A stretch of 64,000 nt of DNA from Parcubacteria group bacterium Gr01-1014_13 (GTDB lineage: Bacteria > Patescibacteriota > Patescibacteriia > Magasanikbacterales > GWA2-37-8): positions 5,030 through 69,029 of the forward strand of contig VMGB01000001.1 in the NCBI GenBank assembly GCA_007376295.1. Reading direction: 5' to 3'. The position numbers and the translations under genes were made by a program. Under the pieces are notes generated by a model. It did no database searches. It worked only from the letters and a program-made list of their open reading frames with translations, and was not told where the DNA came from. Position 1 is the stretch's first letter. Every line of letters begins with the position of its first letter. Shown piece after piece: positions 7,101 through 64,000 of this stretch.

Positions 7101-10100
7101 GGAAAGACAATACCTGGTATCAAGTTGTGCTCCGAAGCGGTATTACTGCTGGTGTCGGTACAAGCAGCGCTCCTTTGGCCAAGGATAAACCGTGCGGCGG
7201 AGACTCATCTTACTGTTTTGTTTTTAGGTCTGATTCCCAAGATTGTAAAATGAAACAAGTGGTAATTACTCCATACAGTTATTTTACTACTGTTTTAGAA
7301 GCGCCAATGAAACACAGGACTAATCCGGCAGATGATGGTGAAGACGTTGTTTATTCTGGACACGGATTAAGCACCCAGCATTGTATAATTATGGACACCA
7401 GCATGTTTACCTGGACTTGGGGCAGTAAAAACGCCTATTATGCCGATATTTTTTCTGCAAATAATTCTTCGGCCAAAGTTTCGGCCTTGGCCAACACTGT
7501 AGGTGTAGGTTTAACTAATCCGGAAAATGCTGTGAATGTAAACGCCACCGCCACATTGGCTTCGGCTAGTTTTGGTGGACGCAGTCCGCTCACCATAGAT
7601 TTAAGTAATCCCGAAGTGGTAGATTTCTGGCCAACTTGTTTGCAGTCTTGTACCAACGCTGAAGTGGGTGTGCGTTTTAGCACCACCATGTCGAATAAAA
7701 ATTTGCCGAGCGGTCCGATAAAATTATTAAAATGTGCTGATGAAAATTGTTTCAAGACTACTCCGGTTTTAGCAGATACAGATGTGTTTTTAGACAGCGC
7801 TACCGGATACAGAATTTTAAAACTTGCCAATTCCGGTCTTGGTTCATTAGAGCTGGAGCCAGATACTATTTATAAAGTTGTAATTTCTTCATCCACCAGC
7901 AATGTAAATTCGCCGGAGTTATTATGGTCTGCGGCCAGATTAGGTGATCCGACTACATTTTCGAAGCCATACAAAAAAGAGTTTACCTGGCGTTTTAAAA
8001 CTAAAAAAGAAAAATGTAAAATTCACCGCGTGGAGGTAGCACCGAAAAATTTCTTTGCTGAATTTGTAATTGATAGAGAACTATACAGCGCCCAACCATT
8101 TTCGTCTCCGGACACTTGTAGTGCAGCCGGACAAAAATTAAATCCTTGGATGGTAGGTTGGAACTGGACATCTTCCGCGCCTGCAGTGGCAAAGGTAACT
8201 ACTTTTAGCACCAAAGGAAGCAATCCTTACTGCACTTTGGGTTGTGTGCGTAAAGGTAGTAGTATTCCGGTCGGAGTGACAGGAATTCCAGTTTGCGGCA
8301 ATGGACAACTAGAAGCCGGGGAGGATTGTGATCCGCCGGGCAAAGGAGCTGGTTGTGGTTTAGATTGTCGAAGATTGGGAAATATTAGTACATCTACTTG
8401 TGGAAATGGAATTGTTGAGCCAAATCGCGGCGAAACATGTGACACCGGATCAGCTACTACTTCCATTGGTTGTGGCAGCAACTGTCTACGTCTTGGTTCT
8501 TCAGCGGCTACGGGCGCAACAGTTACGGGTGCCTCTATTTGCGGCAATGGTTCTATTGGTAGTGGTGAAGATTGTGATTTAGGAATTACAGCATCTTCAA
8601 CAGTGGCTATTTCAGCTATGCGTTGTTCAGACAACTGTTTACATTTAGGTACAAGATTATCTAATAACTGGTGTTTTACTAATAGTGTTGGTTTTGGCGG
8701 ATTTGCCCAAACAGAATTTCTATCTGCATGCCGGCTGGCTTTAAGCCGTTGCGGTGATGGGGTAAATAATCCAGATGAAGACACTGGATGTGATTTAGGT
8801 AATGGTAAGAAAGCTGCAAAGTGTAATGATTTTTGTTTGATTAATACTAGCAGCACTTCTCCTCTTGAATGCGTTGCCAACACCGAAGGCTGTGATCAAA
8901 ATGGTCAACATATAGGTTCTTCCTTGCTTTATAGCACACCATCGTTGTGTGGGAATGGACTGGCAGAAATTGGTGAGGATGCTTTTTGTGAAACTAATAT
9001 TATTACGATCCATACCGGATTTAACCCTTGGACTTTAGCTACTGGTATAGGCTTAGGTGTGGCTATTGGAGTTCCAGCAACTCAGCAAACGGATATAAAT
9101 GGTAGTACCAGCGAGCAAACTGCAGGTGGCGGCCCAGTAGGCAACAAAGGTAAATTTATTATTCCATGCGGATACAAAACTGATGCTGAATGTGAAGTGC
9201 GTCTGGGTAAGGGTTGGGGCGTGGCTTCGGACGGCTGTTGTTATGTGCGTCCGAAATTATCAAGTGTTTATCCGGGAAGTACTACCACAGTCCAAGCAAA
9301 TGTTTGCCCAAATACAGCTATCGAAGCTACTTTTGATGATGAGATAGATGTTTCGAGTTTAAAAAATAATATAGTATTGGCCCGCGGTGCCGGCGCCACA
9401 GCTACTTGTAGCGGCACCGAAGATGTTTCTAATTTAGTATTAAATAATCAACCAGTTGATGGAAGTAATTTGCCTTGGTACAAAAAGATTTTTGTAGTCG
9501 TAGTTAATTTCTTCAGAAATTTAGCGGGTCAAGATGTATCTGCGACCCATACCACTATCCAATCAACCAAGTGGTGCGCCGGAGAAGATCTTGGTCAAGG
9601 CGATGTGGTTGTAACCACCGGGACAGAAAGTAAAATTATTTTCAAATTAGATCAGCCGCTAGCTTTTGATACGGATTATTTTATTGCGTTAAAAGAAGGT
9701 TTACGTAGCAAGCGGGGGATAAGCATTGGGAAAAATAATACTACAAATAAACCATTAAGTTGGAAGTTTATTACCGGATCAAAAATTTGTGAGATTGATA
9801 GTGTGGCTGTAGATCCGTCACAAGTTTATTTAAACAAAGCGGGCGTCACCACCACTCTATTTGCCGATGCTTACAATGCTAGTGCGGCAAAGATTCAGGC
9901 TATACCGAGATTTTATGCCTGGCAATATTTATGGCAACCAGTCGGAAATCTTCTTGTAAATCTACAAGAGACAACCTCTTCCCGAAATATAATTTCGGCG
10001 CAAAATCGTAACGGTGAAATTGACTTGCGCGCTTCAGCGGTAATTACTGACAATATTTATTCTAACCAATTTGGCGCTGTGGCCACCGGCAAGTCCCACG

Positions 10101-10909
10101 CCATCGTCTTTTTGTGCGAAAATCCTTGGCCGCCAAAAGATTTATTCTTGGGCAATGCCGGTCCGTTTATTATTTTCCCTTATGAAGATAAGTTAGGAAA
10201 TAACGACGGCTATAGTTTGGCTGCCAGCACATTCAACAACACTCCTTTGCCACCTTCTCCTAGCGGCGGTTACTTTAATTTCAGATCTTATTACTGCGCG
10301 GATAGTGGTAGTTTTGGTACAGACGATGATTTGCCGTATTTGCGTCCGGCAGTTCAGGTGTCGAGCGCAATAGTTACTGATAGTCCTACGTCTAGTTTAA
10401 AACGATTTATTTTGACTAATACCAGAAACAACGATGCTATCGGAATGGCAGTCTTTTCTAATCCAAAACACTTAACTGTAGCCCAATGGTTTGCAACTGA
10501 CCGGGCTTTAGGCGGACAAGGATTCACTGGTAATATGCAGACTACAAAAATAGATGGCTATGATGCGCTTACGGATGGGAATAATATCTATGTAGATGCG
10601 CTTAATTATTCCGACACTGTTCCTCACAATCTTTACTCTAATATTTACTTATTTAGTATTAATGCTGATGCTCAGCCAGAGACAAAAAAAGTATTTGAAC
10701 AGATGATTGAAAATTTGCGCTTTAATGTCAATCTAACTAATTATGGTTACTGCGGCCCAACAATGGCCAACCCAGGGGCTTCCACCACTTGCCAAACTGA
10801 TTTGGATTGTTCTGGCACAGAAATTTGTTCGGTACAGACCGACAAATTAAAGAGAAATTACCAGAGACTCCGAGATCTAAATGAGATACAAAATTTATTG
10901 GGTATTTAA
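4136..10909 (+). CDS. Giant (2257 aa) secreted surface protein. It carries a TrbC/VirB2-like pilin module, Ig-like domains, about five IPT/TIG domains, Cys-rich CGNG..GE.CD (DUF4215/Myxococcus-type) repeats and further Ig-like domains.
   Basis: Signal peptide MTQRRGKILITLLFAVLATAACLWFAPAVHA, then a pilin module nearly identical to the upstream gene. TIG-like repeats are present (MRINGVSPLSGGPGTFVSISGDYFGN..., PFISSITPDRGGKGEYITITGNNFG...). Repeats CGNGQLEAGEDCDPPG / CGNGIVEPNRGETCD / CGNGSIGSGEDCD / CGDGVNNPDEDTGCD / CGNGLAEIGEDAFCE lie at nt about 8290-8990. Confidence 0.85.
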   Translation: MTQRRGKILITLLFAVLATAACLWFAPAVHAQTTNAPDLGLAPVGSSIGLPSTDIRLVVANIIRVALGLLGIVALVLIIYAGFVWMTAGGEEEKISQAKKIMVNAAIGLAIILSSYAIASFVISKLTDATTDNGGIGGPGGGGDNPYFPGGIFYVDSLPSGGQLCIRNVHLALTFNLKADISTLNDNVVVQKADGTVQPGQWESLSNTTVAFVPNGDCGSGTPDCYAANTAYTLHFKNGSAVKSANGQLGLNCAIKAGCGDVQFTTGDGVDRNPPQVKIEPIASDLLRVGNVVPVEVSYTDDNGVQKIDLTADNFFVSSQSVPGCQKSGSVTLNWPTVGISGGVHALGATGFDWSALSDSTSTNVNLLPQHCFDNTLQADLGEVKVGPPACGGECGACAGSPCTTNTQCASGFCDQVAGVCVDKMRINGVSPLSGGPGTFVSISGDYFGNTPGKVFIGATPAPLAACAIGAWKPWQIIIQVPPGAVSGPISVETAPDSGGKNFTDATNDSFGPRISDFTVNNLVRPGLCGINPVGDLPGAEVSLLGQRFSNAPGQVFFGQQSVLISLSNWTDTLIKARVPLLDVGPVAVKVSKNNLDSNSVKFFVEQGLSGTAPFISSITPDRGGKGEYITITGNNFGDQTGRIWFKENINGQPGDAIDGSFTFPAGCQNTWTDKQIIVKFPANNGSVGKSYFVQVRPADSSLGTSPLGPIFNLEAGLPSPGICNINPVSSPVPFASAAPDMKIIGENFGAAPLVYFWGPAASSTSITGRILGSSSTVTNMLVGQTISTRPLAGTISGPVVVQRKPDNKLSNPQNFSVVDCVKNNNTCTAVNTHCCMAGTESGMCKPDTELCEGETLSTGFIWRFSTKDIPKIPQVVERCDNNTDLGLNIPSPSPSTLWDTSTSGVHHSVCRTASVMVEFSLPTMNNISRTNLVVNECNPSTVNEINRTCTAVGQVNLKGTGDFVPQLSTERTDYLQLNPDASYNNGKWKDNTWYQVVLRSGITAGVGTSSAPLAKDKPCGGDSSYCFVFRSDSQDCKMKQVVITPYSYFTTVLEAPMKHRTNPADDGEDVVYSGHGLSTQHCIIMDTSMFTWTWGSKNAYYADIFSANNSSAKVSALANTVGVGLTNPENAVNVNATATLASASFGGRSPLTIDLSNPEVVDFWPTCLQSCTNAEVGVRFSTTMSNKNLPSGPIKLLKCADENCFKTTPVLADTDVFLDSATGYRILKLANSGLGSLELEPDTIYKVVISSSTSNVNSPELLWSAARLGDPTTFSKPYKKEFTWRFKTKKEKCKIHRVEVAPKNFFAEFVIDRELYSAQPFSSPDTCSAAGQKLNPWMVGWNWTSSAPAVAKVTTFSTKGSNPYCTLGCVRKGSSIPVGVTGIPVCGNGQLEAGEDCDPPGKGAGCGLDCRRLGNISTSTCGNGIVEPNRGETCDTGSATTSIGCGSNCLRLGSSAATGATVTGASICGNGSIGSGEDCDLGITASSTVAISAMRCSDNCLHLGTRLSNNWCFTNSVGFGGFAQTEFLSACRLALSRCGDGVNNPDEDTGCDLGNGKKAAKCNDFCLINTSSTSPLECVANTEGCDQNGQHIGSSLLYSTPSLCGNGLAEIGEDAFCETNIITIHTGFNPWTLATGIGLGVAIGVPATQQTDINGSTSEQTAGGGPVGNKGKFIIPCGYKTDAECEVRLGKGWGVASDGCCYVRPKLSSVYPGSTTTVQANVCPNTAIEATFDDEIDVSSLKNNIVLARGAGATATCSGTEDVSNLVLNNQPVDGSNLPWYKKIFVVVVNFFRNLAGQDVSATHTTIQSTKWCAGEDLGQGDVVVTTGTESKIIFKLDQPLAFDTDYFIALKEGLRSKRGISIGKNNTTNKPLSWKFITGSKICEIDSVAVDPSQVYLNKAGVTTTLFADAYNASAAKIQAIPRFYAWQYLWQPVGNLLVNLQETTSSRNIISAQNRNGEIDLRASAVITDNIYSNQFGAVATGKSHAIVFLCENPWPPKDLFLGNAGPFIIFPYEDKLGNNDGYSLAASTFNNTPLPPSPSGGYFNFRSYYCADSGSFGTDDDLPYLRPAVQVSSAIVTDSPTSSLKRFILTNTRNNDAIGMAVFSNPKHLTVAQWFATDRALGGQGFTGNMQTTKIDGYDALTDGNNIYVDALNYSDTVPHNLYSNIYLFSINADAQPETKKVFEQMIENLRFNVNLTNYGYCGPTMANPGASTTCQTDLDCSGTEICSVQTDKLKRNYQRLRDLNEIQNLLGI
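4265..4535 (+). repeat. Copy 2 of the duplicated pilin-module coding segment
   Basis: Aligns with 2260..2530 (STDIRLVVANIIRVALGLLGIVALVLIIYAGFVWMTAGGEEEKISQAKKIMVNAAIGLAIILSSYAIASFVISKLTDAT). Confidence 0.8.
8281..8998 (+). repeat. Tandem protein-level Cys-rich repeats (about five units of 35-60 aa, CGNG/CGDG...GE.CD...C..C) inside the giant gene
   Basis: Read directly from the translation. The copies have diverged at the nucleotide level. Confidence 0.7.
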
Positions 10910-10950: not shown

Positions 10951-13900
10951 ATGACAAAGAAAAAAATATTTTTGTTTTATTTATTCGCCATTATTTTAAC
11001 TTCGGCTTTTTTATCTCACGCAAAAGTAAAAGCTGCTAACGCGCCAGCTCTCAAAGAGGGGACATACTTAACCGGCCAAACCTTAAGCATCTGGCCTTCC
11101 TGGTCACTGCTAGGAAATTCTTTAGGCGTTAATTTACCTTCCGACCCTATAAATCAATTGGCTACTGCCGGCACCTGTGTTACCAGTACCAATAGATTCT
11201 GTATCAATGATGCCCAATGTCCGGCTGGCGAAACTTGTGTTTTACATGACCCGGAAACTGGCTGGAGCGTTGCCAACAGGCGCTTTACTTTTGCGTGCAA
11301 TAAAGATTCTTACGCTTATCGGTATATAGCTTCTACAACACCCGGTGCTTATACAGTGCGCGCTCATTTTGAAGATCCGGGGATTGCACCGGCAAATTTT
11401 AACAGTTTTGTTTCTAGTTTTGTCAGCACTAGCGTTTTTAAAATAAATGATAGTAGCGGTGTATGTAATTTTGATCAGGAAATTTCTTCCATGCAATCCG
11501 GTACTTGCGGAGATGGTAAACTTAATTTGAATAAAGGTGAACAGTGCGATCCGCCCGGCATAGTTGAATACGCTACTGGTTGTGTTGGAGCTATTAAAAA
11601 TTTAAATGTCTGCGGCAAAAATTGCAGATGGACCGCTTCTACCACTTTATGCAGCAATTTAAGTAAATGTGGTAATGGTTCCATAGAGTTTGGTGAAACC
11701 TGTGATGATGGTACTTTAAATGGAAAATATAATCATTGTAATGTTACTTGCAATGGTGTGAGTGCTTTGGGCAAGTGTGGAGATGGAACTTTACAGTCCA
11801 CTTATGAAATTTGTGATCCTAGTACGTCTGGAAAAGAAAAGTATGCTCTTAATAAAGCCGGATCTTGCAGTTGGGATTGCCAAAAATTCGGACCTTATTG
11901 TGGGGATACTATTGCCCAGACTCAATATGGTGAAGAATGTGATGGCTCGCAAGCTTGTTCGGTAGATGGAAATCCCGGTGTTCGAGTTTGTACAAATAAT
12001 TGCTTGCAACAAGACAGTAAAGCCGCAGCTTGGTGGCATTTGGAAAAGATGGTGGGTTATAAACCAGGATTAACTAACAAAACTGATGATGCTACGGTAA
12101 ATGGCAATTTGGCAATATGTCCAGTGGCTAATTGCCCGGCCACGAGTACAGGAAAATATGGTAATGGCCGTGAGTTTAATATTCCTTCTGGTGGAACAGG
12201 TGGTAAGTATTTAACTGTCGCAAGTAGCGCCAGTTTGGAAGCTACCAGCTCATTAACTGTAGAAGCATGGATTTTTCCAACTACCACTAGCAGTCTTTAT
12301 CAGAGAATTGTGGAAAAAGGAGGCCCCAGCACTGGTAAGGGTTATGATTTGGAATTTAACATTTCGGCCACTACATCTGTAGTAAGGTTTAATTTATGGA
12401 ATGGCACACAAACCTCAGTTGATTCAAAAAGTTCTATTTCTACAGGTACCTGGACGCATGTAGTTGGTACATATGTCCTAAATGGAACCAGCAATATTGC
12501 TAAAATTTATATTAATGGAGTTTTGGAAAATACAAATAGTATTATTAGGCCTACTCCGATAATGGCGAAAGATACTGGCAGTTTAGCAATTGGTAAATCT
12601 GCCGGTGCAGCTCTCACCAATTTTTTCTTTGGCAGTTTGGATGAAGTTAAAATTTATAATCACACTTTATCGGATGATGAGGTGAAAAATAATTATCAAA
12701 GCGGCTGGTATTGTACAGCTACTTCTACGCCAGTCACAGCCCCATCTGGTAGCTGTGGCGATAATATTGTAGATCCTAATGAAGCCTGTGATCGGGGAAC
12801 AGCCGATAATGGCCGCGCCTGCGCCCCAGCTTATGGCGTACCATGTTCTTATTGCTCGACAGATTGTCAGAATACTATTGAAGTCCAACCCATTGAATAT
12901 TGCGGCAACGGCATTATTGAAAGTTCAGAAAAATGCGAAGTGGCTGGCGCGAATATTTTCGCAGCCACTAACACTGTTGGCAGAACAGCTTCTGTAAAAA
13001 ATACTAGTTACAATGGTTATCAAGAGCTGGCGTGCGCGGATGAGACTCCGGTCGTTACGCATACTATAAAAAAAGGTACAAAGAGTTGCCCGGATTGTTC
13101 TTTGGGAATAATAAGAAATTGCGTGCAGTGCGGTGCGGATGTAAATGGGGTGGGCGTGGAGGGCGGTCTAATTAATGTTTTGGAAAACCCTATAACAAAC
13201 AGTTCCCGAGATCCGCTTTTTGCTAAAATTACAAGCAGCTCGCTTAGTTTATCGGTTAGCAACCGATTTCCAAGCCTTCCGCCTATCTGTAGTATAGTTG
13301 TGCCTCAGCTTCAACCGTCTGTATGCAAAGACAGGCTCACTGCTTCATCTCCGATAGTAGCTGTGGATAGGAAAAATGGAAATTCCTCAAACCTTGTTTC
13401 TTATGCCTTATTTAATCCTTACGTTAGCGGTTTTCCATCCGCTCTAGTCAATAGCGATCCCATTTGTTCCGTGAGTGATAGCTTTATTGATAAGTATCAA
13501 ATGTATGTTAATTATGACTGGTCCCGCCCGTTAAATTTCCCGGTGGTAGCCGAACCGCAATCTTGGCAATATGACTTAGTGTTTTCGCCGGTAGTTTCCA
13601 GCACTAAGCGTGCCAGAGATATAAGGGTGGTCGTAAGTTGGGTTGGATCCGGAGATTTTTATAGCGGAGTAGTTAATCCGTTTATTTCCAACCCTCAAAT
13701 AGAAGGAGCGAATTATGTTGCTCCGGGGCCATCCTATCAGTATGCTACCGGCATAAATTATTACAATTCACCAGCTGATTTCAAAAAATACGGTATCTGG
13801 TATCATGGTTTTAATGTTACTCCCGGCCAAACAAGCGCCGAGGCCTTTACAATTGATACGGCAAATATGAGTGGCAACACCTATGCATTTTATGTGCGCT

Positions 13901-14448
13901 CTCCAAGTTATCCGATCAGAATATATAAAAATACTGCTAAGTTAAAAGTGGATGTTTATTTGCCCGAACTAGACAACAGCCAGTATCATTTTGGCACTCC
14001 GGCCCGGACATATTACTTTATCTCTTCGGCTCCTTCGGATAACCAAAACGCCCGCTATTGGCAAGTGTTTAATATGAAATTTTCATCGTCAAGTTTATCC
14101 GTATCAGATATAATAGGTATAAATACGATAGTTACAGGGCCTACATACTTTAAATATACAAACCCTCTGGTTGCTAACCCCGCATGCACAGAGGCGGATT
14201 GGCGTGCGACTACACCTCTAGTATTTTGTGCGATAGGGTCAACAAAAACACTAACTTGGACAAAATTAACAAATTGTGTTGGTGGGGTACAGCATCCGCC
14301 CACAGAGGTTGTCTCTTGTGGCGATCCGCAACAATCTCCCACTACCCAACAGACCCAAACAACTCAAACAAGCCAACCGGCTATCGGCACTAAAAATGTT
14401 TCCCAACCCATTATTTCCCAACCTACCACCAATCAACAGAGCCCATAG
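10951..14448 (+). CDS. Large (1165 aa) secreted protein with DUF4215-type Cys-rich repeats, a LamG/concanavalin-like domain and a Thr/Gln-rich C-terminal tail
   Basis: Signal peptide MTKKKIFLFYLFAIILTSAFLSHAKVKA. Repeats CGDGKLNLNKGEQCDPPG / CGNGSIEFGETCDDG / CGDGTLQSTYEICDP / CGDNIVDPNEACD / CGNGIIESSEKCE. LamG-like block NGNLAICPV...YDLEFN...KIYINGV...SLDEVKIYNHTLSDDEV. The tail reads TTQQTQTTQTSQP. Confidence 0.8.
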   Translation: MTKKKIFLFYLFAIILTSAFLSHAKVKAANAPALKEGTYLTGQTLSIWPSWSLLGNSLGVNLPSDPINQLATAGTCVTSTNRFCINDAQCPAGETCVLHDPETGWSVANRRFTFACNKDSYAYRYIASTTPGAYTVRAHFEDPGIAPANFNSFVSSFVSTSVFKINDSSGVCNFDQEISSMQSGTCGDGKLNLNKGEQCDPPGIVEYATGCVGAIKNLNVCGKNCRWTASTTLCSNLSKCGNGSIEFGETCDDGTLNGKYNHCNVTCNGVSALGKCGDGTLQSTYEICDPSTSGKEKYALNKAGSCSWDCQKFGPYCGDTIAQTQYGEECDGSQACSVDGNPGVRVCTNNCLQQDSKAAAWWHLEKMVGYKPGLTNKTDDATVNGNLAICPVANCPATSTGKYGNGREFNIPSGGTGGKYLTVASSASLEATSSLTVEAWIFPTTTSSLYQRIVEKGGPSTGKGYDLEFNISATTSVVRFNLWNGTQTSVDSKSSISTGTWTHVVGTYVLNGTSNIAKIYINGVLENTNSIIRPTPIMAKDTGSLAIGKSAGAALTNFFFGSLDEVKIYNHTLSDDEVKNNYQSGWYCTATSTPVTAPSGSCGDNIVDPNEACDRGTADNGRACAPAYGVPCSYCSTDCQNTIEVQPIEYCGNGIIESSEKCEVAGANIFAATNTVGRTASVKNTSYNGYQELACADETPVVTHTIKKGTKSCPDCSLGIIRNCVQCGADVNGVGVEGGLINVLENPITNSSRDPLFAKITSSSLSLSVSNRFPSLPPICSIVVPQLQPSVCKDRLTASSPIVAVDRKNGNSSNLVSYALFNPYVSGFPSALVNSDPICSVSDSFIDKYQMYVNYDWSRPLNFPVVAEPQSWQYDLVFSPVVSSTKRARDIRVVVSWVGSGDFYSGVVNPFISNPQIEGANYVAPGPSYQYATGINYYNSPADFKKYGIWYHGFNVTPGQTSAEAFTIDTANMSGNTYAFYVRSPSYPIRIYKNTAKLKVDVYLPELDNSQYHFGTPARTYYFISSAPSDNQNARYWQVFNMKFSSSSLSVSDIIGINTIVTGPTYFKYTNPLVANPACTEADWRATTPLVFCAIGSTKTLTWTKLTNCVGGVQHPPTEVVSCGDPQQSPTTQQTQTTQTSQPAIGTKNVSQPIISQPTTNQQSP

Positions 14449-14494: not shown

Positions 14495-14890
14495 ATGATG
14501 GGAACAAATAAAAAAATTATAATCTTATTAGTTGTTTTGGCGCTGGGGGGAGCGGGGGTTTTGGCTTACAAAAAATTTATTTCATCCAAACAAGTGGATA
14601 AAAATTTAGCACCATCATCTAGTTCTTCTCTAGATGAAGCAAGACAGCAGGAATTTGACGATGCCATAAAGAAAACTTCTGCCTCGGATCAAGATATGGA
14701 TGGAATTCCAGATAATGAAGAAGCAAAATACAAAACCAGTGTTACATCTTCTGATACAGACGAAGACGGCTTACCAGATCATCAAGAAATTTTTAATTTT
14801 AAAACTGATCCGCTAAAAGCAGACACCGATGATGATGGTTCTGCAGATGGGTACGAAGTGCGTCGCGGCTCAGATCCTAAAAAGATTTAA
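14495..14890 (+). CDS. Small membrane-anchored protein with thrombospondin-type-3-like DxDxDG calcium-binding repeats
   Basis: N-terminal TM segment IIILLVVLALGGAGVLAY, then DQDMDGIPDNEE, DTDEDGLPDHQE and TDPLKADTDDDGSADGYE. Confidence 0.6.
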   Translation: MMGTNKKIIILLVVLALGGAGVLAYKKFISSKQVDKNLAPSSSSSLDEARQQEFDDAIKKTSASDQDMDGIPDNEEAKYKTSVTSSDTDEDGLPDHQEIFNFKTDPLKADTDDDGSADGYEVRRGSDPKKI

Positions 14891-14915
14891 TTTTTATCAT
14901 TTATTACTCGATTAT

Positions 14916-15689
14916 ATGTTTGATGAGCAAAACCAAAATTCAGGCGCGCCCAAAAATTTACCAGCCGAACCAGTAGATATGTTTGCTGGAGTAGAAAAAG
15001 ATGAAGGGAAGTTAGGGCAAATGCCGCCATCTAGCCCGGATGCTTTGTCTGCTGGCCGGTTGAGTCCTAAGGGGGCTCCTGCGATAAAAAAAGAAGAAGC
15101 GCCTATCTCACCTCATTTATCAAATGTCGGTCATGAACTAAAAATGAGTACGCCTATTTTGGGGAAAATATTATTATTTTTAGCGGTAGTTTTGTTATTA
15201 GGCGGTTTGGCCTACGGCGGTTGGTGGTTTATGTATGGTAGTAAAAATAAATCCGCTAAATTACCCGCAACGACCACCGAGCAGACTGTTCAAAATCAAA
15301 CTTCTGGCGTAACTAATACCACCAATATTCCTGCGCAGATAAATAATGATCAGATTTTATTTGGACAAGCAGTTGATAGCGATAAAGATGGGTTAGATGA
15401 TGTACGTGAAAAAGAGATTGGCACTGATCCGCAAAAATTAGATTCTGATATTGATGGTTTAAATGATGGTGATGAAGTTATTATATACAAGACTAATCCT
15501 TTATTTGCAGATACAGACACAGACGGTCTAAGCGATGGCGATGAGATTCTTATTTGGCGCTCTAACCCTTTGAATATGGATACCGATGGTGATAGTTATA
15601 AAGATGGTGAAGAAGTGAGAAATGGCTATAGTCCTGTTGGGCCTGGAAAACTATTTAGCGCACCGTCTTCCACAGCTACAGGCACTTAA
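14916..15689 (+). CDS. Membrane-anchored protein with TSP3-like DxDxDG repeats. The start is taken at the internal ATG of listed ORF 14829..15689.
   Basis: ATG at 14916 lies downstream of the previous stop at 14890. TM segment ILGKILLFLAVVLLLGGLAYGGWWF. Repeats DSDKDGLDDVRE, DSDIDGLNDGDE, TNPLFADTDTDGLSDGDE and SNPLNMDTDGDSYKDGEE. Confidence 0.65.
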   Translation: MFDEQNQNSGAPKNLPAEPVDMFAGVEKDEGKLGQMPPSSPDALSAGRLSPKGAPAIKKEEAPISPHLSNVGHELKMSTPILGKILLFLAVVLLLGGLAYGGWWFMYGSKNKSAKLPATTTEQTVQNQTSGVTNTTNIPAQINNDQILFGQAVDSDKDGLDDVREKEIGTDPQKLDSDIDGLNDGDEVIIYKTNPLFADTDTDGLSDGDEILIWRSNPLNMDTDGDSYKDGEEVRNGYSPVGPGKLFSAPSSTATGT

Positions 15690-15696
15690 ACTATAT

Positions 15697-16857
15697 ATGT
15701 TTGGAAAAAAAGAGGAAATAAGTACAAAAAATGATCCGATGAGTAAGGTTCCGAGTGATGGGCAAACTATAAGTGTGCAGACAATTCCTGCAGATTTTTA
15801 TGGCGGTGTAAATCCAGTCGTGAAATTTAAAAAAGTAGAAAAAGAAGTGTTGCTGGAATCAAAATCAAAGCTGACTCCGTCAGAAAAGAAAGTTCTTGAT
15901 AAAAGCACGGCTGCAGGCAAGGATTCGCTTTTGCATCCGGTCAATATTTTGACCAATAAAAAATATGCGATAATTTTTGGATCTTCTCTTTTCGTGCTTA
16001 TTGTGGCCGGGGTGAGCGTCTATTATTATCTACAACTTCGACAGCCAAAGATTTCTCTGCCGCCACAACCGGAAATTAGCATTCCTACTACCAGCGAGCT
16101 GACACCAGTAGCGGTAGAAAGTCCGACCGAAGAGCCCGCTGTTACTAGTACTGCGCCTCAATCTTTAGCAGAAGCGCCGATAGAATTTCCGTCCAGTCTT
16201 TTAGGAGATAGTCCGGATTTGGATAAAGACAGCCTGACAGACACTGCTGAAGAGTTGTTTGGTACCGACCCAAGCAAGCCAGATACTGATGAAGATAGTT
16301 ATAACGATGGCCATGAAGTTTTTTATCTGTATAATCCGGCTGGCAAAGAGCCCTTGAAATTAATCGACTCTGGTTTTGTAAAGGATTATAATAATCCAGT
16401 GTTTGGTTATAAAGTTTTTTATCCGTCAACTTGGGCTGTGGGCAATGTGGATGAAGGTTATCGAGATGTTTTGTTTAGTACGATTACCGGTGAGAACATA
16501 GAACTTCGGGTGTTTGATCGATTGTCAAACCAGACATTTGCAGACTGGTTTGCGCAGTGGGCGCCAACCGAGCAATATCAAAATTTGAAAGATTTTCAAA
16601 CTAAATTCGGACAGTCAGGTAAAAGCAGGGCAGATAGCTTGGTATATTATTTTATGGACGATAACCATGTATATGTGGTAGTTTACCATACCACAGATTC
16701 CAATGTGGTTAATTATCGGTCCGTAATGGCGATGATGGCAAGGAGTTTTAGAACTCCTGGGTTCACTGCTTCGGAAGCAGTCCCACCACCAAATGCGGAA
16801 ACAAATACTTTCCCTACTGAAATGCCTACCGCCATAAACGCTCCAGAATCCCAATAA
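15697..16857 (+). CDS. Membrane-anchored protein with TSP3-like repeats and a C-terminal domain resembling the PsbP/DUF1795 fold (tentative). The start is taken at the internal ATG of listed ORF 15622..16857.
   Basis: ATG at 15697 lies immediately after the upstream stop at 15687-15689. TM segment AIIFGSSLFVLIVAGVSVYYYL. Repeats DSPDLDKDSLTDTAEELFGTDPSKPDTDEDSYNDGHE. C-terminal block FGYKVFYPSTWAV... Confidence 0.6.
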   Translation: MFGKKEEISTKNDPMSKVPSDGQTISVQTIPADFYGGVNPVVKFKKVEKEVLLESKSKLTPSEKKVLDKSTAAGKDSLLHPVNILTNKKYAIIFGSSLFVLIVAGVSVYYYLQLRQPKISLPPQPEISIPTTSELTPVAVESPTEEPAVTSTAPQSLAEAPIEFPSSLLGDSPDLDKDSLTDTAEELFGTDPSKPDTDEDSYNDGHEVFYLYNPAGKEPLKLIDSGFVKDYNNPVFGYKVFYPSTWAVGNVDEGYRDVLFSTITGENIELRVFDRLSNQTFADWFAQWAPTEQYQNLKDFQTKFGQSGKSRADSLVYYFMDDNHVYVVVYHTTDSNVVNYRSVMAMMARSFRTPGFTASEAVPPPNAETNTFPTEMPTAINAPESQ

Positions 16858-57550: not shown

Positions 57551-58666
57551 TTGATTTTAGTAGTAGGAGCTTTTATTTTTGCCTGCATTATCATTTGGTG
57601 GGCCTGGACTGAAACAGTGCATACTATAAAAACCTCTATCGTTTTATCAGGCGATGTGTCGGACAACAAAACAGAATTATTGGCCAGAGAAAAATCGGCG
57701 CTGATAAAAGTTAAAGGACTGTATCTCACAGCCTATTCGGCCGGCAATCCGAAAAAAGTGGATGAAATTATAAGTTTAATCGATAAGACCGAGTTAAACG
57801 CTGTGGTTATAGATATTAAGGATTATAGCGGCAAAGTTTTATACGATAGCCGGGTAAAACTAGTAAATGATTTGAAAATAGATGAAAATCGTTTGGGAAA
57901 TGTGCAGAATTTGATAAAAAAATTTCATGCCAAAAATATTTATGTAATAGCGCGTCAAACTGTATTCCAGGATCCGATTTTGGCAGAAAAAAAGCCCGAA
58001 TGGGCGATAAAAAATAAATCGGGAAATTTGTGGAGAGACCATAAAGGTTTGGCTTGGGTTGATCCGAGCAAAAAAGAAGTTTGGTCGTACAATGTCGCCA
58101 TCGCCAAAGAGGCGATTGGCTTTGGTTTTGATGAAATAAATTTTGATTATGTTCGTTTTCCTTCCGATGGCGATATGTCGCAGGCAGTTTATGCTATTGG
58201 TAATGAAAAAAAATATGAGGTAATGGGTAAGTTTTATCATTTTCTTAATATAAAGCTAGAAGATCAGCCGGCCTGGATATCTTTAGATATGTTTGGCTTG
58301 GTGATGGAAAAGCACGGCGAAGACGATATGCGTATCGGACAAAGATTGGCTGATGCCGTGGGTGAAGTCGATTATATCTCGCCAATGATGTATCCGTCGC
58401 ATTATCCCAGCGGCCATTTGGGTCTAACCAATCCGGCTGATCATCCCGCAGCAGTATTTAAACATGGAATGAAGCTGGGCACGCCAAAGTTCGTGGGCAA
58501 ACGCGCCAAAGTTCGTCCGTGGATACAAGCGTTTAATGTGGGTGCTATATATGATGCCGGCAAAATGAGGGCGCAGATAGATGAAATAGAAAAATATCCG
58601 GAAAATGCCGGTTGGTTGGCATGGAACGCAGCAAACAGGTATACAGCTAGCGGATTAAACAAATAA
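57551..58666 (+). CDS. Putative glycoside hydrolase-like TIM-barrel protein (DUF4015/GHL10-like) with an N-terminal TM anchor
   Basis: Pattern KGLYLTAYSAG...LNAVVIDIKD...FDEINFDYVRFP is typical of DUF4015. Confidence 0.6.
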   Translation: MILVVGAFIFACIIIWWAWTETVHTIKTSIVLSGDVSDNKTELLAREKSALIKVKGLYLTAYSAGNPKKVDEIISLIDKTELNAVVIDIKDYSGKVLYDSRVKLVNDLKIDENRLGNVQNLIKKFHAKNIYVIARQTVFQDPILAEKKPEWAIKNKSGNLWRDHKGLAWVDPSKKEVWSYNVAIAKEAIGFGFDEINFDYVRFPSDGDMSQAVYAIGNEKKYEVMGKFYHFLNIKLEDQPAWISLDMFGLVMEKHGEDDMRIGQRLADAVGEVDYISPMMYPSHYPSGHLGLTNPADHPAAVFKHGMKLGTPKFVGKRAKVRPWIQAFNVGAIYDAGKMRAQIDEIEKYPENAGWLAWNAANRYTASGLNK

Positions 58667-59490: not shown

Positions 59491-59550
59491 TTATCCCCAT
59501 GAAGTTTATTTCCGGTTGTGATACAATATATACAACATAGTGAAGTAAAT

Positions 59551-60141
59551 ATGGTAGAGGAACAGGCAAGTGCAGGACTATCAAAAGAACAAAAGATAGG
59601 AGTGATTTTACTATCTGTTTTTTCTGTTTTTGCTATCGGTTTAGGTATTTTGCAAATCAGAAATACGATGTACGCGCCTTTTTCTCTTAGTAAAAAAATT
59701 CCTCCTTTGATTAGGGATGATATAAACAGTACCGAAGCTTTGATGTATCGCGATACTGATAAAGACGGGTTAAACGATTTTGATGAATTGTATGTTTATG
59801 CTACCAGTCCTTATTTGGCTGATACTGATTCTGATGGTCTGGAAGACAAAGCTGAAGTTGATAAAGGTTCAGATCCGCTGTGTGCAGAAGGTCAGAGTTG
59901 TGGCGAAGTGGGTGTGAGTGAAGATGTTTTGCTCGGCGCTCCTATTATTCCTTCCGTCACTTCTACTTTGGGTCCAGAGCCTTCGCCAGAGGATATTAAT
60001 AAAATTTTAAGCGATCCGGCGCAGGTCCGCAAGATATTATTGGATTCAGGTTTGGATAAAAAAATAATAGACGCAACTTCCGATGCTGATTTGATGAAAA
60101 TGGTAAAAGATATTCTAAGTGCTAGTAGCACTGAGCTATAA
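59551..60141 (+). CDS. Membrane-anchored protein with TSP3-like DxDxDG calcium-binding repeats, the fourth member of this type in the window
   Basis: TM segment IGVILLSVFSVFAIGLGIL, then DTDKDGLNDFDE and SPYLADTDSDGLEDKAEVDKGSDPLC. The start is taken at the ATG at 59551, downstream of an extended -10 element TGTGATACAAT. Confidence 0.55.
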   Translation: MVEEQASAGLSKEQKIGVILLSVFSVFAIGLGILQIRNTMYAPFSLSKKIPPLIRDDINSTEALMYRDTDKDGLNDFDELYVYATSPYLADTDSDGLEDKAEVDKGSDPLCAEGQSCGEVGVSEDVLLGAPIIPSVTSTLGPEPSPEDINKILSDPAQVRKILLDSGLDKKIIDATSDADLMKMVKDILSASSTEL

Positions 60142-60146
60142 AGTTT

Positions 60147-63100
60147 ATGCCTAAGTTTCAAAAATTTGCAATTAAAATTTTAGCAGTAATTTTTATTTTT
60201 GTAACTGTAGTCGGCTCCCTTTCTTCTGCTCAGCCAGCCCAAGCACTTCTTCCGGTGGCAGTTGTTGCTGATGCGCCGACGATAGGTTTTAGAATACTTG
60301 ATGTAATTAAAGAATTTTTAAAAACTGCCACTGTAAGCATAGTCGTTCAATCTGCTTCATATATTATGCGCCGGGTAGCATATGATTCAGCGGTTTGGTT
60401 AGCCTCGGGAGGTAAAGGAGAAACGCCATTTGCTCACCAAAAAGATTTTGGCAGTTACCTAAAAGACGTCGCTGACAACACAGCCGGAGTGGCCATAGAT
60501 GCTTTGGGCGCGCCGTATGGTTTAAATTTGTGTAAAATCCCTGATCCAAAAATTGATTTGGCCATGCGTATTGGTTTGACCAATAAATTTATGGATATAA
60601 ATCAGACACAGGGTGTGCTGAAACCAAATTGTACCTGGTCGAGTTTTCAAAAAGATGTTTTAAGCACCGATAATTGGAAGAGCCAATTCGGTAGCACAGA
60701 CGATATAGCCAAAAAATTTAACGTGGCCTTTTCTGTAGAGCAGAGTGATGTCGGTATTGTGATGAGCGCCACCGAAAAAATTAATAATTTAGTACTCAAA
60801 CAAACAGAAGCCTCTAAGTTGCAAAGACAGGAAGGCCAGGGCTATAAACCAAAAACAACTCCAATCTCCGGCAACATTGTTACTCCAGCTAAGGATATTG
60901 CTAAAGAGGCAGAGGCAATAAGTCCAAGCGAGCAGCAAAAGAAGGCCGAAAGAAGTTTTGGGGATACTCTTGGCACTGGATTGACTGGAGCTATAGTGCC
61001 AGCGCTTTCACTTTTTGCAAATACCCTGCTCTCCAAAATGGTTGAAAATTACCGCACAAAAGGCATGTTTCCTTTTGGAGTATGTATCGGTGATCATGGA
61101 GATACAAGCTGTAAGTCGCTTCAAGATACTCTTACTAACTTAGAAGGCCAAGTAAGTGTGGGTGGACGTCAGGTGGCTGAAGCTTTGTTTGCTGATTTTC
61201 TTACCCCGCCAAATATACAGGTTGATGAGTATAATGTTTTGGGAAATTTTTCTAGTTGTCCACCTACATCACGAGGACCGGAAAATTGTGTCGCTGATGG
61301 CGGTTTGTCTCAAGCGGCTCAGGAAACAAATATTGGCAAGCCAGTTACGGTTGCGGAAGCTTTGGCCAAAAATTGGCTGCATGGGGATTGGAAATTAATT
61401 CCTCCCGAACGTGCTGCTGATCAAACGGACATGAATTGCTATCAAAGAGCTTACTGCTATGCCAATATTGCCAAGTTGCGTAAAGCCAGAGTTTTACCAC
61501 TAGGTTTTGAAATTGCGGCTTTAAACAGCAATCCGGATACTCCTTGGACATTAAAACAAGTCGTGGAAGGTTTTAATGATTGTAATTTTATAAAAGATAT
61601 AAATGGAAAAGTGGTAGGGGTAGATAATGATCCTATAAACAAACCTTTTTGTCATTTAATTGATCCGAACTGGGTATTAAAAGCGCCGCCATCAAAATGT
61701 AATTTTTTGGCCTTTGGTTCTTCGCCGTTCTTTAATGCGGCGCCAAACCGCGCTCAAGAATGCACTGACTTAAGCACTTGTGTGGCTTATGATAAAAATG
61801 GCAATTGTTCAAACCAAGGTTACTGCACCAGAGAACGCAATGTCTGGAAAATAGATGCGGCCAAATGCGATTCCCAATTTCGTACTTGCCGGTCGTTCCA
61901 GGATATTAATGGCAAGACTGTAAGTTATCTTTATCGCACTCTTGATACTGGTTATTGTACTCAAGACAATGTTGGTTGCGCTGCGTATAGTTTAAAACAG
62001 GATAATTCTGGAAATTGGACAGGCTATTCCAAGAACGATATAAATATTGGTGAGAATTCAGCTATCTATTTAAATAACAAAATTTCAACAAATTGTTCCG
62101 TTGGTTCTGATGGTTGTTCGTCTTTCCAAACAGCCAGTACATCAGATCAGCTATACTTACGCCAAGCCCCGTATTATTTAGGATGCTACGATACAAACAC
62201 CGCTACACTAGCAATAGATTGGCCTCAAAGTACTTCTGATCTTAGCAGATTAACTGAAAATCCAAAATGTGATAGTTATTCGTCTGTCTGTATTCCTAGT
62301 GAAGTAAATTGTAATTGGTATGAGCCGGTCAGTTATGCCGGAGATAGTATTCCGGGTAAGTTTGAGCCAGCTAAGATTGTGGAGAGTCAGATAGTTTGGA
62401 ATGATCAATGTGACAAAAGATGTGTTGGTTACGCTGGTTACCGAGAAATGCCAAGCAACTATTCTGATGGCCGAGCTTTAGCTTATATCATCCCATCCTC
62501 AGGTTCAAAATGTAGCGCTGTCGACGAAGGTTGTGCCAGTTTTACCAACCTAAGCGCTACTGTGGGCGGATTAGAAAAAGTAGAACATTATTCTTACTTG
62601 CGTCCTTGTATTTTGCCAGACGAAACCAGACAGAAAAATTTCTATACTTACGAAGGATCAGTAGTGGGTGGTTACCAATTAAAAGGATTTATTTTGGAAA
62701 AAGACACCGATGGCAGTCCTAAATATTTCTATCGCACTAACGAAGATTTGCTTAACTATAACGCCACTTGCAGTGAAGCTTTGTATAAGCAAGGTTTATC
62801 TAGTCCGGATTGTCGTCAGTTTAATGATGACAAAGGAACTGTATACTACAAATTATTGTCAAAAACTATTGCCGTTTCTGGTTCCTGTACGCCGTATAGA
62901 TTAAATGATACTGAGTTGCGTCCGGTAAGTTTAACGCAAGCGCAATGTACTGCTCAAAAAGGATTCTGGGATACTACACAAAACAAATGTAGTGTTTGTT
63001 TCCAAAACGGTGAGTATCGAGACGGACAATGTTTCTATAATGGTCTGCCTAGTGGTGTAGCAAATACAGCAGGAAGTAGTAATGGCTGCGCACCGGAAGT

Positions 63101-64000
63101 AAATACTTGTCGCGCTTACAAAGGCAATGCAGGCAATAATGTTAGAAATATTTTTAGTAATAATTTTGAAGGAGCTTCCGCCTCTGCCTTAGAAGCCTGG
63201 GAACCAGTTGCAAATATTTCTCAGTCTTTGGAATCTACTCATGCTGGCGAACATTCTTTGTCATACAATAGTTCCGGAGCTTCCGCTCTCTCCAAAAATT
63301 TATCTTTAAATCCCGGCCAAAGTTATGATTTGAGTTTTTGGGCTAAAGGCAGCGCTGGAGCCAGTGTTACAGTCACTTTAGACAACGGCACGGCTTCGAC
63401 TTTGGGAACAGTGAGTGTGGGTGATGTTTGGCAGTTTTATCACTTAGGGCCAGTAGAATTTGGTGGAAATACCAGTACCGCACAACTTAAATTTACTATC
63501 AATGGTCAATTATTCTTGGATAATGTCAGTCTAAAAGAGGTGGCAGATTATATTTATCTGGTTAAAAACACTTTAAAAGTTGATCCGGTTTGCGATAGTA
63601 ATTTAACCGATAATTTACCAGGCGAAGCTTTGGGTTGTTCCGAATACAAGACTTCCGATAACAAGCCTATCTATCTTACCAAGTTCAATTCTCTTTGCCG
63701 TGAAAAAGCGATTGGCTGTACTGCGCTTTATGATACGCGCAAGACTCCGGATGAACCTGGTCCACGCGCTTACAATGTTTGGTTGGCAGGAGTAGCTGGC
63801 AACAGCATTACCAAAACTATTGGAGATCAGGATTATACTTGTCAGGTTCCAGTAGGTCAGTATGGTTGTTATGTAAATGTTGTTGGTTCAACCTTAGGCG
63901 AAATTGTGGCCAGCGGCGGAACTATCGTAACTTCTACTATTTTTGTTCAGCCAGATACTTCTTCTACTCTGCCTATTTATTTAGTTGCTAACCAACAAGC
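60147..64000 (+). CDS. Giant secreted Cys-rich protein, 5' part only (more than 1284 aa; runs off the window) with a CBM4/9-like carbohydrate-binding module
   Basis: Open frame from the ATG at 60147 to the window end, verified codon by codon. Signal peptide MPKFQKFAIKILAVIFIFVTVVGSLSSAQPAQA. Many spaced Cys. At nt about 63150-63545 the block NFEGASASALEAWEP...HAGEHSLSY...GQSYDLSFWAKG...LFLDNVSL resembles CBM_4_9. Confidence 0.7.
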   Translation, partial: MPKFQKFAIKILAVIFIFVTVVGSLSSAQPAQALLPVAVVADAPTIGFRILDVIKEFLKTATVSIVVQSASYIMRRVAYDSAVWLASGGKGETPFAHQKDFGSYLKDVADNTAGVAIDALGAPYGLNLCKIPDPKIDLAMRIGLTNKFMDINQTQGVLKPNCTWSSFQKDVLSTDNWKSQFGSTDDIAKKFNVAFSVEQSDVGIVMSATEKINNLVLKQTEASKLQRQEGQGYKPKTTPISGNIVTPAKDIAKEAEAISPSEQQKKAERSFGDTLGTGLTGAIVPALSLFANTLLSKMVENYRTKGMFPFGVCIGDHGDTSCKSLQDTLTNLEGQVSVGGRQVAEALFADFLTPPNIQVDEYNVLGNFSSCPPTSRGPENCVADGGLSQAAQETNIGKPVTVAEALAKNWLHGDWKLIPPERAADQTDMNCYQRAYCYANIAKLRKARVLPLGFEIAALNSNPDTPWTLKQVVEGFNDCNFIKDINGKVVGVDNDPINKPFCHLIDPNWVLKAPPSKCNFLAFGSSPFFNAAPNRAQECTDLSTCVAYDKNGNCSNQGYCTRERNVWKIDAAKCDSQFRTCRSFQDINGKTVSYLYRTLDTGYCTQDNVGCAAYSLKQDNSGNWTGYSKNDINIGENSAIYLNNKISTNCSVGSDGCSSFQTASTSDQLYLRQAPYYLGCYDTNTATLAIDWPQSTSDLSRLTENPKCDSYSSVCIPSEVNCNWYEPVSYAGDSIPGKFEPAKIVESQIVWNDQCDKRCVGYAGYREMPSNYSDGRALAYIIPSSGSKCSAVDEGCASFTNLSATVGGLEKVEHYSYLRPCILPDETRQKNFYTYEGSVVGGYQLKGFILEKDTDGSPKYFYRTNEDLLNYNATCSEALYKQGLSSPDCRQFNDDKGTVYYKLLSKTIAVSGSCTPYRLNDTELRPVSLTQAQCTAQKGFWDTTQNKCSVCFQNGEYRDGQCFYNGLPSGVANTAGSSNGCAPEVNTCRAYKGNAGNNVRNIFSNNFEGASASALEAWEPVANISQSLESTHAGEHSLSYNSSGASALSKNLSLNPGQSYDLSFWAKGSAGASVTVTLDNGTASTLGTVSVGDVWQFYHLGPVEFGGNTSTAQLKFTINGQLFLDNVSLKEVADYIYLVKNTLKVDPVCDSNLTDNLPGEALGCSEYKTSDNKPIYLTKFNSLCREKAIGCTALYDTRKTPDEPGPRAYNVWLAGVAGNSITKTIGDQDYTCQVPVGQYGCYVNVVGSTLGEIVASGGTIVTSTIFVQPDTSSTLPIYLVANQQ

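Follow-up and report, generated by a model that had tools for sequence, protein, structure and literature searches.

A 64,000-nucleotide stretch of contig VMGB01000001.1 from Parcubacteria group bacterium Gr01-1014_13 (the window, in what follows) ends inside the gene of a giant secreted, cysteine-rich protein, which starts at position 60147 and lies directly behind the gene of a small membrane protein with thrombospondin type 3 (TSP3) repeats. We find that these two genes form a cassette that recurs across a very large and unannotated protein family, and that the giant protein is very probably an extracellular, disulfide-rich surface protein made from this two-gene unit. Our favoured reading, to which we give a probability of about 0.5, is that the protein is held by its TSP3 partner and serves contact at the cell surface or with a host, possibly together with a T4SS (type IV secretion system). 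The source is a Patescibacteria bacterium (CPR, for Candidate Phyla Radiation) of the Magasanikbacteria type. Patescibacteria represent a large share of bacterial diversity, and those in cultivation live attached to host cells by means that are mostly unexplained; if the reading is true, the cassette is a good candidate for their contact with host cells. The giant gene alone would take up an estimated ~ 0.7% of a genome of ~ 1 Mb, the typical size for Patescibacteria. Even if the T4SS link fails, a membrane TSP3 protein paired with an anchorless giant of 100 cysteines is a defined surface module of interest.

The giant protein and its TSP3 partner

The features of the two genes in the window are as follows.

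59551–60141, forward strand: gene of the TSP3 partner, 196 residues from ATG 59551 (207 residues in the mechanical open reading frame (ORF) from GTG 59518)
59587–59664, forward strand: single transmembrane (TM) helix of the partner, residues 13–38 in the 196-residue numbering
59752–59886, forward strand: two bacterial TSP3 (DxDxDG) repeats of the partner, putatively calcium-binding
60147–64000, forward strand: gene of the giant secreted, cysteine-rich protein, 5′ half (1284 of ~ 2530 codons), from its open frame, clear start and homologue P0007
60147–60245, forward strand: Sec-type signal peptide of the giant protein, residues 1–33
60246–61211, forward strand: mostly helical, conserved N-terminal domain, residues 34–355, from alignment A4
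61212–63143, forward strand: cysteine-rich, mostly beta region with repeated C-x6-C-x-x-[FY] loops and no known domain, residues 356–999
63144–63569, forward strand: beta-jelly-roll of the carbohydrate-binding module (CBM) 4/9/16/22 type, residues 1000–1141, from Pfam, Foldseek and the family profile
63570–64000, forward strand: start of a second cysteine-rich region, residues 1142–1284, with conserved C1149, C1164, C1184 and C1191

Translation of 60147–64000 gives 1284 sense codons and no stop. An earlier reading of the window from its sequence alone (the sequence-only reading) had described an uninterrupted frame from 60147 to beyond the window, and retranslation, which shows no stop or frameshift, bears this out. 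The start at ATG 60147 is unambiguous because the codons that separate it from the in-frame TGA ending at 60134 (GCT ATA AAG TTT) include no start codon. The gene is absent from the list of ORFs solely because its frame runs off the window, as had been supposed. The closest full-length relative, P0007, encoded at locus L004, is 90% identical and 2528 residues long, with the same gene order. From its length the window carries ~ 51% of a gene for ~ 2530 residues, and P0007 and its locus were used as a proxy for the 3′ half. Exact-match look-ups aimed at the 3′ end returned, for KsgA, only a 3.5-kb Logan contig that ends before the end of the window, and for the 207-residue ORF no record.

The N-terminus of the giant protein reads MPKFQKF-AIKILAVIFIFVTVVGSLSS-AQPAQA, with L as the next residue. 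By inspection it contains a charged, lysine-rich n-region, a hydrophobic core (hydropathy > 1.5 in windows beginning at residues 1–13) and an AxA site (A-Q-A) with predicted cleavage after A33. The P-A-x-A signal site is conserved in alignment A4 of 38 N-terminal sequences, and an AxA is found inside residues 19–60 of 166 of the 208 full-length family members. The signal peptide proposed in the sequence-only reading is therefore confirmed both by its parts and by its conservation in the family; the Sec pathway would export the giant protein and the signal peptide would be cut off.

The fragment encoded in the window has 45 cysteines (3.5%), and the median content of the 208 full-length members is 3.64%. 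Ten neighbouring proteins other than the giants were compared; nine contain 0–1.1% cysteine, and the tenth, a 673-residue T4SS_pilin protein (2103–4124), contains 2.2%. The cysteines are strongly conserved: 35 of the 45 are invariant in an alignment of six sequences, and among 68 sequences with identities down to ~ 32% almost all are either invariant or ≥ 90% conserved. An even number of cysteines occurs in 178 of the 208 full-length members (86%) where 104 would be expected by chance, and this parity argues that essentially all of them are paired. The dozens of spaced cysteines described in the sequence-only reading are thus present, but its Cys-x-x-Cys or Cys-pair pattern is not: CxxC occurs once in the fragment and CC never. 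The spacing that recurs is C-x6-C, in 8 of 44 gaps, and C-x5-7-C-x-x-[FYWL] is found in eight instances compared with 0.87 expected from shuffled sequences, at positions conserved among homologues. The cysteines of the giant protein form hairpin-type loops of this C-x6-C kind. Outside the cell the protein would be a long, mostly beta scaffold with perhaps ~ 50 disulfide bonds and many such short loops.

An LPXTG-like motif in the last 60 residues and a C-terminal TM or hydrophobic segment were each found in none of the 208 full-length members, and a strongly hydrophobic 19-mer beyond residue 60 is seen in only six. From these three observations the giant protein has no anchor of its own.

The giant gene begins 5 nt past the stop codon of the TSP3 partner gene, and an identical partner gene is called at 196 residues in L001 and L004. 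The partner consists of a short cytoplasmic N-terminus, one TM helix (Kyte–Doolittle hydropathy > 1.6 in a 19-residue window, at the same position in homologues), two TSP3 repeats (matches to D.D.DG[LIVMF].D at residues 68 and 91), a loop of the C-x5-C type, a linker rich in Pro, Ser and Thr and, at the C-terminus, a conserved helical motif. The Pfam model TSP3_bac (PF18884) matches the ORF at 59518–60141 marginally, with 25.5 bits against a cutoff of 25, over residues 102–121 in the 207-residue numbering. The positions of the D.D.DG[LIVMF].D motifs are conserved across loci. Among 62 recovered upstream ORFs, the 45 examined have a uniform architecture: 196–230 residues, a TM helix at ~ 13–40, one or two DxDxDG motifs at fixed positions, exactly two cysteines and a conserved C-terminal motif. 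The outlier (L051) has 131 residues with neither TM helix nor TSP3 repeat. Two DxDxDG repeats and weak NCBIfam matches to MtsD and CglD relate the partner to bacterial TSP3-repeat proteins (PF18884) such as myxobacterial MtsC/MtsD and CglD. It differs from these in being a 196-residue single-pass membrane protein with only two repeats, and all of the NCBIfam scores are far under their cutoffs. The sequence-only reading had placed a TSP3-repeat anchor protein in front of the giant. The TSP3 membrane protein is there, by its Pfam match, its one TM helix and its two repeats, and the word anchor is a reasonable interpretation of it rather than an observation.

The pairing of the two genes is close and persistent. 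In 68 of 71 loci a TSP3 gene is found upstream, ≤ 1.3 kb from the giant gene; in nine loci where the gap was measured it is 0–8 nt in five and never > 99 nt. It is still immediately upstream in L089 and L090, which encode the most divergent members (P0114 and P0116; ~ 30% identity) in a wholly different context: both loci have VanW and HSP20 on the upstream side, and L090 has NusA and YidC on the downstream side. As the TSP3 gene is kept in these rearranged, divergent loci, the two-gene cassette is the invariant unit. In L072 and L073, neither TSP3 nor KsgA gave a tblastn match at E ≤ 1e-5. At 9355–9759 on the forward strand of L072, between a VirB6-like operon and the giant gene, the usual position of the TSP3 partner is taken by a 134-residue protein of the '23S rRNA-intervening sequence protein' family (PF05635).

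The same operon would supply the anchorless giant with a single-pass partner whose outside part has two putatively calcium-binding TSP3 repeats and the conserved C-terminal helix. Most likely the giant is kept on the surface by this partner, perhaps through the giant's own conserved helical N-terminal domain; we rate such tethering as an even bet.

Domain layout and the CBM-like module

The N-terminal domain (residues 34–355) carries the motifs AYDSAVWLASGGKGQ, NLCKIPDPKIDLA, QRQEG.G and ISG.I.TPA in alignment A4. AlphaFold models it as helical with a predicted local distance difference test (pLDDT) score mostly < 50, that is, with no confident prediction of its fold, and its profile matched no PDB sequence. 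From residue 360 to residue 1200 the model is mostly beta with pLDDT of ~ 75–92, in particular across 360–520 and 660–1000 (75–92), and is weaker at 520–660. The second cysteine-rich region goes on beyond the window, as seen in P0007 and alignment A2. For the last 1200 residues of P0007 the model is coherent (pLDDT 74, predicted template modelling score 0.67); fold searches with the C-terminal half against the PDB and the viral BFVD returned nothing at E ≤ 0.001, and neither an enzymatic nor a toxin fold was seen. Toxin matches of the first model (iota toxin Ib and Cry) were dropped as their root-mean-square deviation (rmsd) was > 20 Å. The consensus of the C-terminal end in full-length homologues carries a PKD-like signature, WGDG...F.F.H.Y...V.V.D..G, with no Pfam match and a weak Foldseek match to the PKD structure 1wgo (E = 1.6).

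Pfam and NCBIfam searches with full-length P0007 recognised nothing beyond the CBM-like module, and ~ 95% of the giant protein has no match to a Pfam family or a solved structure. Conservation in the family is high over residues 1–1900, falls sharply in a cysteine-poor, indel-rich stretch at ~ 1900–2300 and recovers at the cysteine-rich C-terminal end.

The module recognised is a beta-jelly-roll of the CBM4/16 type at residues 1000–1141, with sugar binding putative only. Pfam CBM_4_9 (PF02018) matches residues 1002–1082 (63150–63392) with E = 4.4e-6 and 27.5 bits compared with a gathering score of 25.9, over positions 4–89 of the 136-position profile. The model also exceeds its gathering score in P0007 and P0002, falls under it in P0004 and P0116 and gives no match at E ≤ 0.1 in P0001, P0003, P0005 and P0101. 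Evidence from structure and from the family points the same way. The region is modelled with pLDDT of ~ 80–90, and the sole compact PDB matches of the model are CBM16, CBM61 and related modules (TM-score 0.58–0.66, rmsd 3.3–5 Å, ≤ 26% identity). For CBM16 (2zey, 2zew, 3oea and 3oeb) the TM-score is 0.59–0.66 with rmsd 3.9–4.8 Å over ~ 150 columns and 24–26% identity, and for CBM61 (2xom) it is 0.63 with 15–18% identity. The family profile (alignment A3, 2342 positions), run against all PDB sequences, found only CBM4, CBM16 and related carbohydrate-binding modules, at ~ 1000–1141; the best match is 1gui, the CBM4 of laminarinase 16A (E = 8.9e-5), with CBM16 at ~ 6e-3 and 1k42, the CBM4 of a xylanase, at 9e-3. 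The Foldseek and family-profile matches together make the assignment of the fold sound. The sequence-only reading had set a CBM-like block near 63150–63545, and both its placement and its family agree with these results.

NCBIfam adds only a sub-threshold choice-of-anchor C match over the same region. Within the module F1007, W1018, F1064, W1065, W1095 and D1125 are conserved and resemble core or edge positions, and the module as a whole is less conserved than the regions flanking it. With CBM4, CBM9, CBM16 and CBM22 it shares the beta-jelly-roll fold, a score over the Pfam threshold and sequence matches to CBM4 and CBM16. It differs from them in that no recognisable glycoside hydrolase accompanies it, that it makes up ~ 5% of a cysteine-rich protein of 2,500 residues and that most members of the giant family fall under the Pfam threshold, carbohydrate binding being putative.

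The family, its gene neighbourhood and possible functions

A profile search found 138 relatives of the giant protein, all of ~ 2300–3760 residues and all labelled hypothetical. A HMMER scan of 1.84 billion representatives gave 1457 clusters (at 50% identity) with E ≤ 1e-3, of which 1105 reach 1e-30, and among GTDB species representatives relatives occur in 354 stretches. Where the records are sensibly named they belong to Candidatus Magasanikbacteria, 'Patescibacteria group' or Kaiserbacteria. Many contigs with Patescibacteria gene content and a giant-family gene are labelled 'uncultured Gammaproteobacteria bacterium', and one 'Candidatus Udaeobacter sp.' (L008–L087); these look like mislabelled records of metagenome-assembled genomes.

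In the literature searched there is no description of the family, or of giant proteins paired with TSP3 proteins in CPR bacteria. Large secreted surface proteins are themselves a known feature of CPR genomes, so the kind of protein is not new, and for a cultivated Saccharibacterium surface proteins that are predicted adhesins have proved essential (PMC11665869). What is new here is a very large family with no Pfam model, with mostly unmatched folds, with an obligatory TSP3 partner and with frequent T4SS adjacency. It is spread over hundreds of species with neither annotation nor literature, and ~ 95% of the protein, among it the C-terminal half with its confident model, is unlike any solved structure.

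In 39 of 52 loci a gene for a VirB6-like polytopic protein of ~ 1000 residues lies ≤ 4 kb downstream of the giant gene. The protein has ~ 6–7 TM segments, and the homologue in L006 scores 28.4 bits, which passes the Pfam TrbL/VirB6 threshold of 25.9. Next after the VirB6-like gene, L004 and L088 encode a pair of unannotated proteins and then PrgI (VirB3), a TraC/TrsD-like protein and the VirB4 ATPase. These T4SS genes are on the same strand as, and directly downstream of, the giant gene in these relatives. The cluster is an MPF_FATA-like T4SS as described for Patescibacteria (10.1101/2025.01.22.634366; PMC12102498). A survey of CPR T4SSs found no PrgB-type adhesins and KsgA frequently near virB4, and drew unannotated neighbours only as grey genes (10.1101/2025.01.22.634366). 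For the adhesin that the survey did not find and the unannotated neighbours that it left unexplained, the TSP3–giant cassette is a concrete candidate. L072 and L073 have a VirB6-like gene on the upstream side of the giant gene; its 300-residue partner comes next in L072, where no T4SS gene is found downstream of the giant gene.

Two further kinds of gene are seen near the cassette. In the window a DUF4015/GHL6 putative glycosyl-hydrolase gene (57551–58666, forward strand) has Sua5 on one side and KsgA on the other and lies two genes upstream of the giant; it is present at this position in many, not all, of the syntenic loci. Behind the giant gene there is often a small convergent gene (reverse strand; L004 17753–18328, L005 16989–17630, L072 18128–18700 and L091 20160–20849). 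The products have no detectable mutual homology and are lipoprotein-like, with a hydrophobic stretch ending in Cys, acidic (13–26% D + E) and with 6–14 cysteines.

In the Gram-positive conjugative T4SS of pCF10, the genes of surface adhesins precede those of the VirB6-like, PrgI and VirB4 proteins and share their strand. The giant family resembles this PrgA/PrgB/PrgC arrangement (MPF_FATA) in that the gene of a large secreted protein lies directly upstream, on the same strand, of VirB6-like, PrgI (VirB3) and VirB4 genes. It differs from PrgB in having no similarity of sequence or fold, no LPXTG (0/208) and a size two to three times larger, in being disulfide-rich and TSP3-paired, and in a T4SS adjacency that is not universal. 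Neither the window fragment nor P0007 has a Pfam or NCBIfam match to PrgB or other T4SS adhesin domains, and no PDB adhesin was matched.

In the favoured reading the scaffold would present the CBM4/16-type, sugar-binding-like module together with the hypervariable region that lies outside the window. With these two elements, the complex would most likely be for contact with a host or a substrate glycan; the module and the variable region may mediate contact with a glycan-bearing surface, most plausibly that of a host cell. We regard adhesion or host contact as having slightly less than even chances. Since the cassette lies directly upstream of VirB6–PrgI–TrsD–VirB4 in most of the family genomes, it may be a contact arm of the T4SS, and any T4SS role at all is, in our estimate, rather unlikely. 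The fullest form of the proposal makes the cassette the missing extracellular contact arm of the Patescibacteria T4SS: a disulfide-locked, calcium-dependent, host-glycan-recognising structure that positions the VirB6/VirB4 translocon, PrgB-like in its role and unrelated in its largely novel fold. We hold it to be doubtful.

Several observations weigh against the favoured reading. The giant protein has no named homologue. T4SS genes are missing nearby in L005, L089 and L090, and the window itself ends inside the giant gene, short of any T4SS gene. KsgA is upstream in 69 of 71 loci, and the synteny of the upstream housekeeping genes equals or exceeds that of the T4SS genes, so that inheritance of the gene order, and not a functional coupling, could account for much of the T4SS adjacency. 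The CBM_4_9 match is marginal, 1.6 bits over the threshold, with a precomputed match in only 18 of 120 listed homologues. Confidence in the model is low for the N-terminal domain, the proposed place of docking, and ~ 1900 conserved residues suit a structural role in the envelope as well as they suit an adhesin.

That structural role is the first alternative, that is, an S-layer-like protein or surface scaffold held by a calcium-binding membrane partner and with no specific part in secretion or in the recognition of a host. Members of the family are very widespread, ~ 1900 of its residues are strongly conserved, the core housekeeping neighbourhood of GroEL, RF-1, Sua5 and KsgA is found in nearly all loci, and calcium-binding TSP3 repeats would suit the stabilisation of a lattice. 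However, neither the Pfam scans nor the profile search of PDB sequences found an SLH or known S-layer domain, and S-layer proteins are usually much smaller and cysteine-poor, which counts against this alternative. The hypervariable region and lectin-like module suggest ligand recognition instead, and the link to the VirB6-like gene outlasts rearrangement in L072 and L073. We consider a purely structural role unlikely.

The second alternative takes the giant protein as an integral extracellular part of the Patescibacteria T4SS, a conduit, stalk or tip, and not as an accessory adhesin. In its favour, the giant gene shares a strand with VirB6-like, PrgI, TrsD-like and VirB4 genes and lies directly upstream of them in the 39 of 52 loci, the adjacency is retained in L072 and L073, and T4SSs of the monoderm type have no known extracellular parts, none having been found in CPR bacteria. 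Yet the divergent members retain the TSP3 partner where no T4SS genes are nearby, no homology to T4SS components was detected (Pfam, NCBIfam; hhalign against the pilin domain < 1%) and export by a Sec signal peptide is independent of a T4SS. This makes it an improbable explanation. A secreted polysaccharide-degrading enzyme, in which the CBM brings an unrecognised catalytic domain to its glycan, would account for the CBM4/16-type module and for the DUF4015 gene two genes upstream in the window and many other loci, but it is very improbable given that Pfam, NCBIfam, the PDB sequence profile and Foldseek reveal no catalytic domain in either half and that DUF4015 is missing from many loci, including all of the rearranged ones.

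Other giant proteins and the rest of the window

The window has two further giants with TSP3 proteins nearby. At 2103–4124 and 4136–10909 on the forward strand are secreted proteins of 673 and 2257 residues, in which N-termini with a VirB2-like T4SS_pilin domain (PF18895) are joined to Ig-like domains of the Big_5/TIG kind; a 1165-residue Laminin_G_3 protein comes after them (10951–14448). With these pilin-fused giants the genome could have a second surface system related to the T4SS. Three consecutive forward-strand ORFs come next (14495–14890, 14829–15689 and 15622–16857), all encoding single-pass membrane proteins and overlapping by ~ 60–70 nt, which may reflect mis-chosen starts. TSP3_bac repeats are present in the first and the second; the third shows DxDxD motifs like those of TSP3 and no Pfam match.

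The sequence-only reading had taken the locus at 60147 to mirror this one at 2.1–16.9 kb. The pilin-fused proteins are indeed giant, secreted, cysteine-rich (2.2–3.4%) and beta-rich proteins of the same genome, with TSP3 membrane proteins nearby; but theirs are Big_5 and TIG domains with the TSP3 genes downstream, whereas the protein studied here has a CBM and its TSP3 gene upstream. Homology was rejected: BLASTP against the 2257- and 1165-residue proteins gave only a marginal N-terminal match of 86 residues (E = 0.006) and hhalign gave < 1%, and the mirroring is thus not upheld in the sense of homology. A divergent T4SS_pilin (PF18895) N-terminus was likewise rejected, with no Pfam match and hhalign probabilities of 0.9% and 0.7% for alignment A4 against the two pilin domains of the window. 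Hydropathy shows no second hydrophobic helix after the signal peptide of the giant protein. Its residues 76–92 and residues 77–93 of the protein at 4136–10909 share Y-x-x-x-V-W-[ML]-x-[AS]-GG, equally far from the signal peptide in both, a likeness with no statistical support (hhalign < 1%).

The window is otherwise an ordinary piece of chromosome from a low-GC (~ 40%) genome, with nearly all genes on the same strand. PADLOC defence models gave no match, and no T4SS machinery was found inside the window, the other large ORFs being housekeeping genes. The housekeeping genes are HisRS, FtsA, FtsZ, pyruvate kinase, IF-2, LeuRS, ComEC, NusA, GroEL, RF-1, Sua5 and KsgA, and the last four are the neighbourhood that surrounds the cassette in nearly all loci. 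In the Kaiserbacteria relative (L002 5925–6965 and L003 4214–5254) Sua5/YrdC has 346 residues compared with 199, and its domain is split by matches to DUF559/MTES_1575 (Vsr-like endonuclease), which looks like an inserted mobile endonuclease domain.

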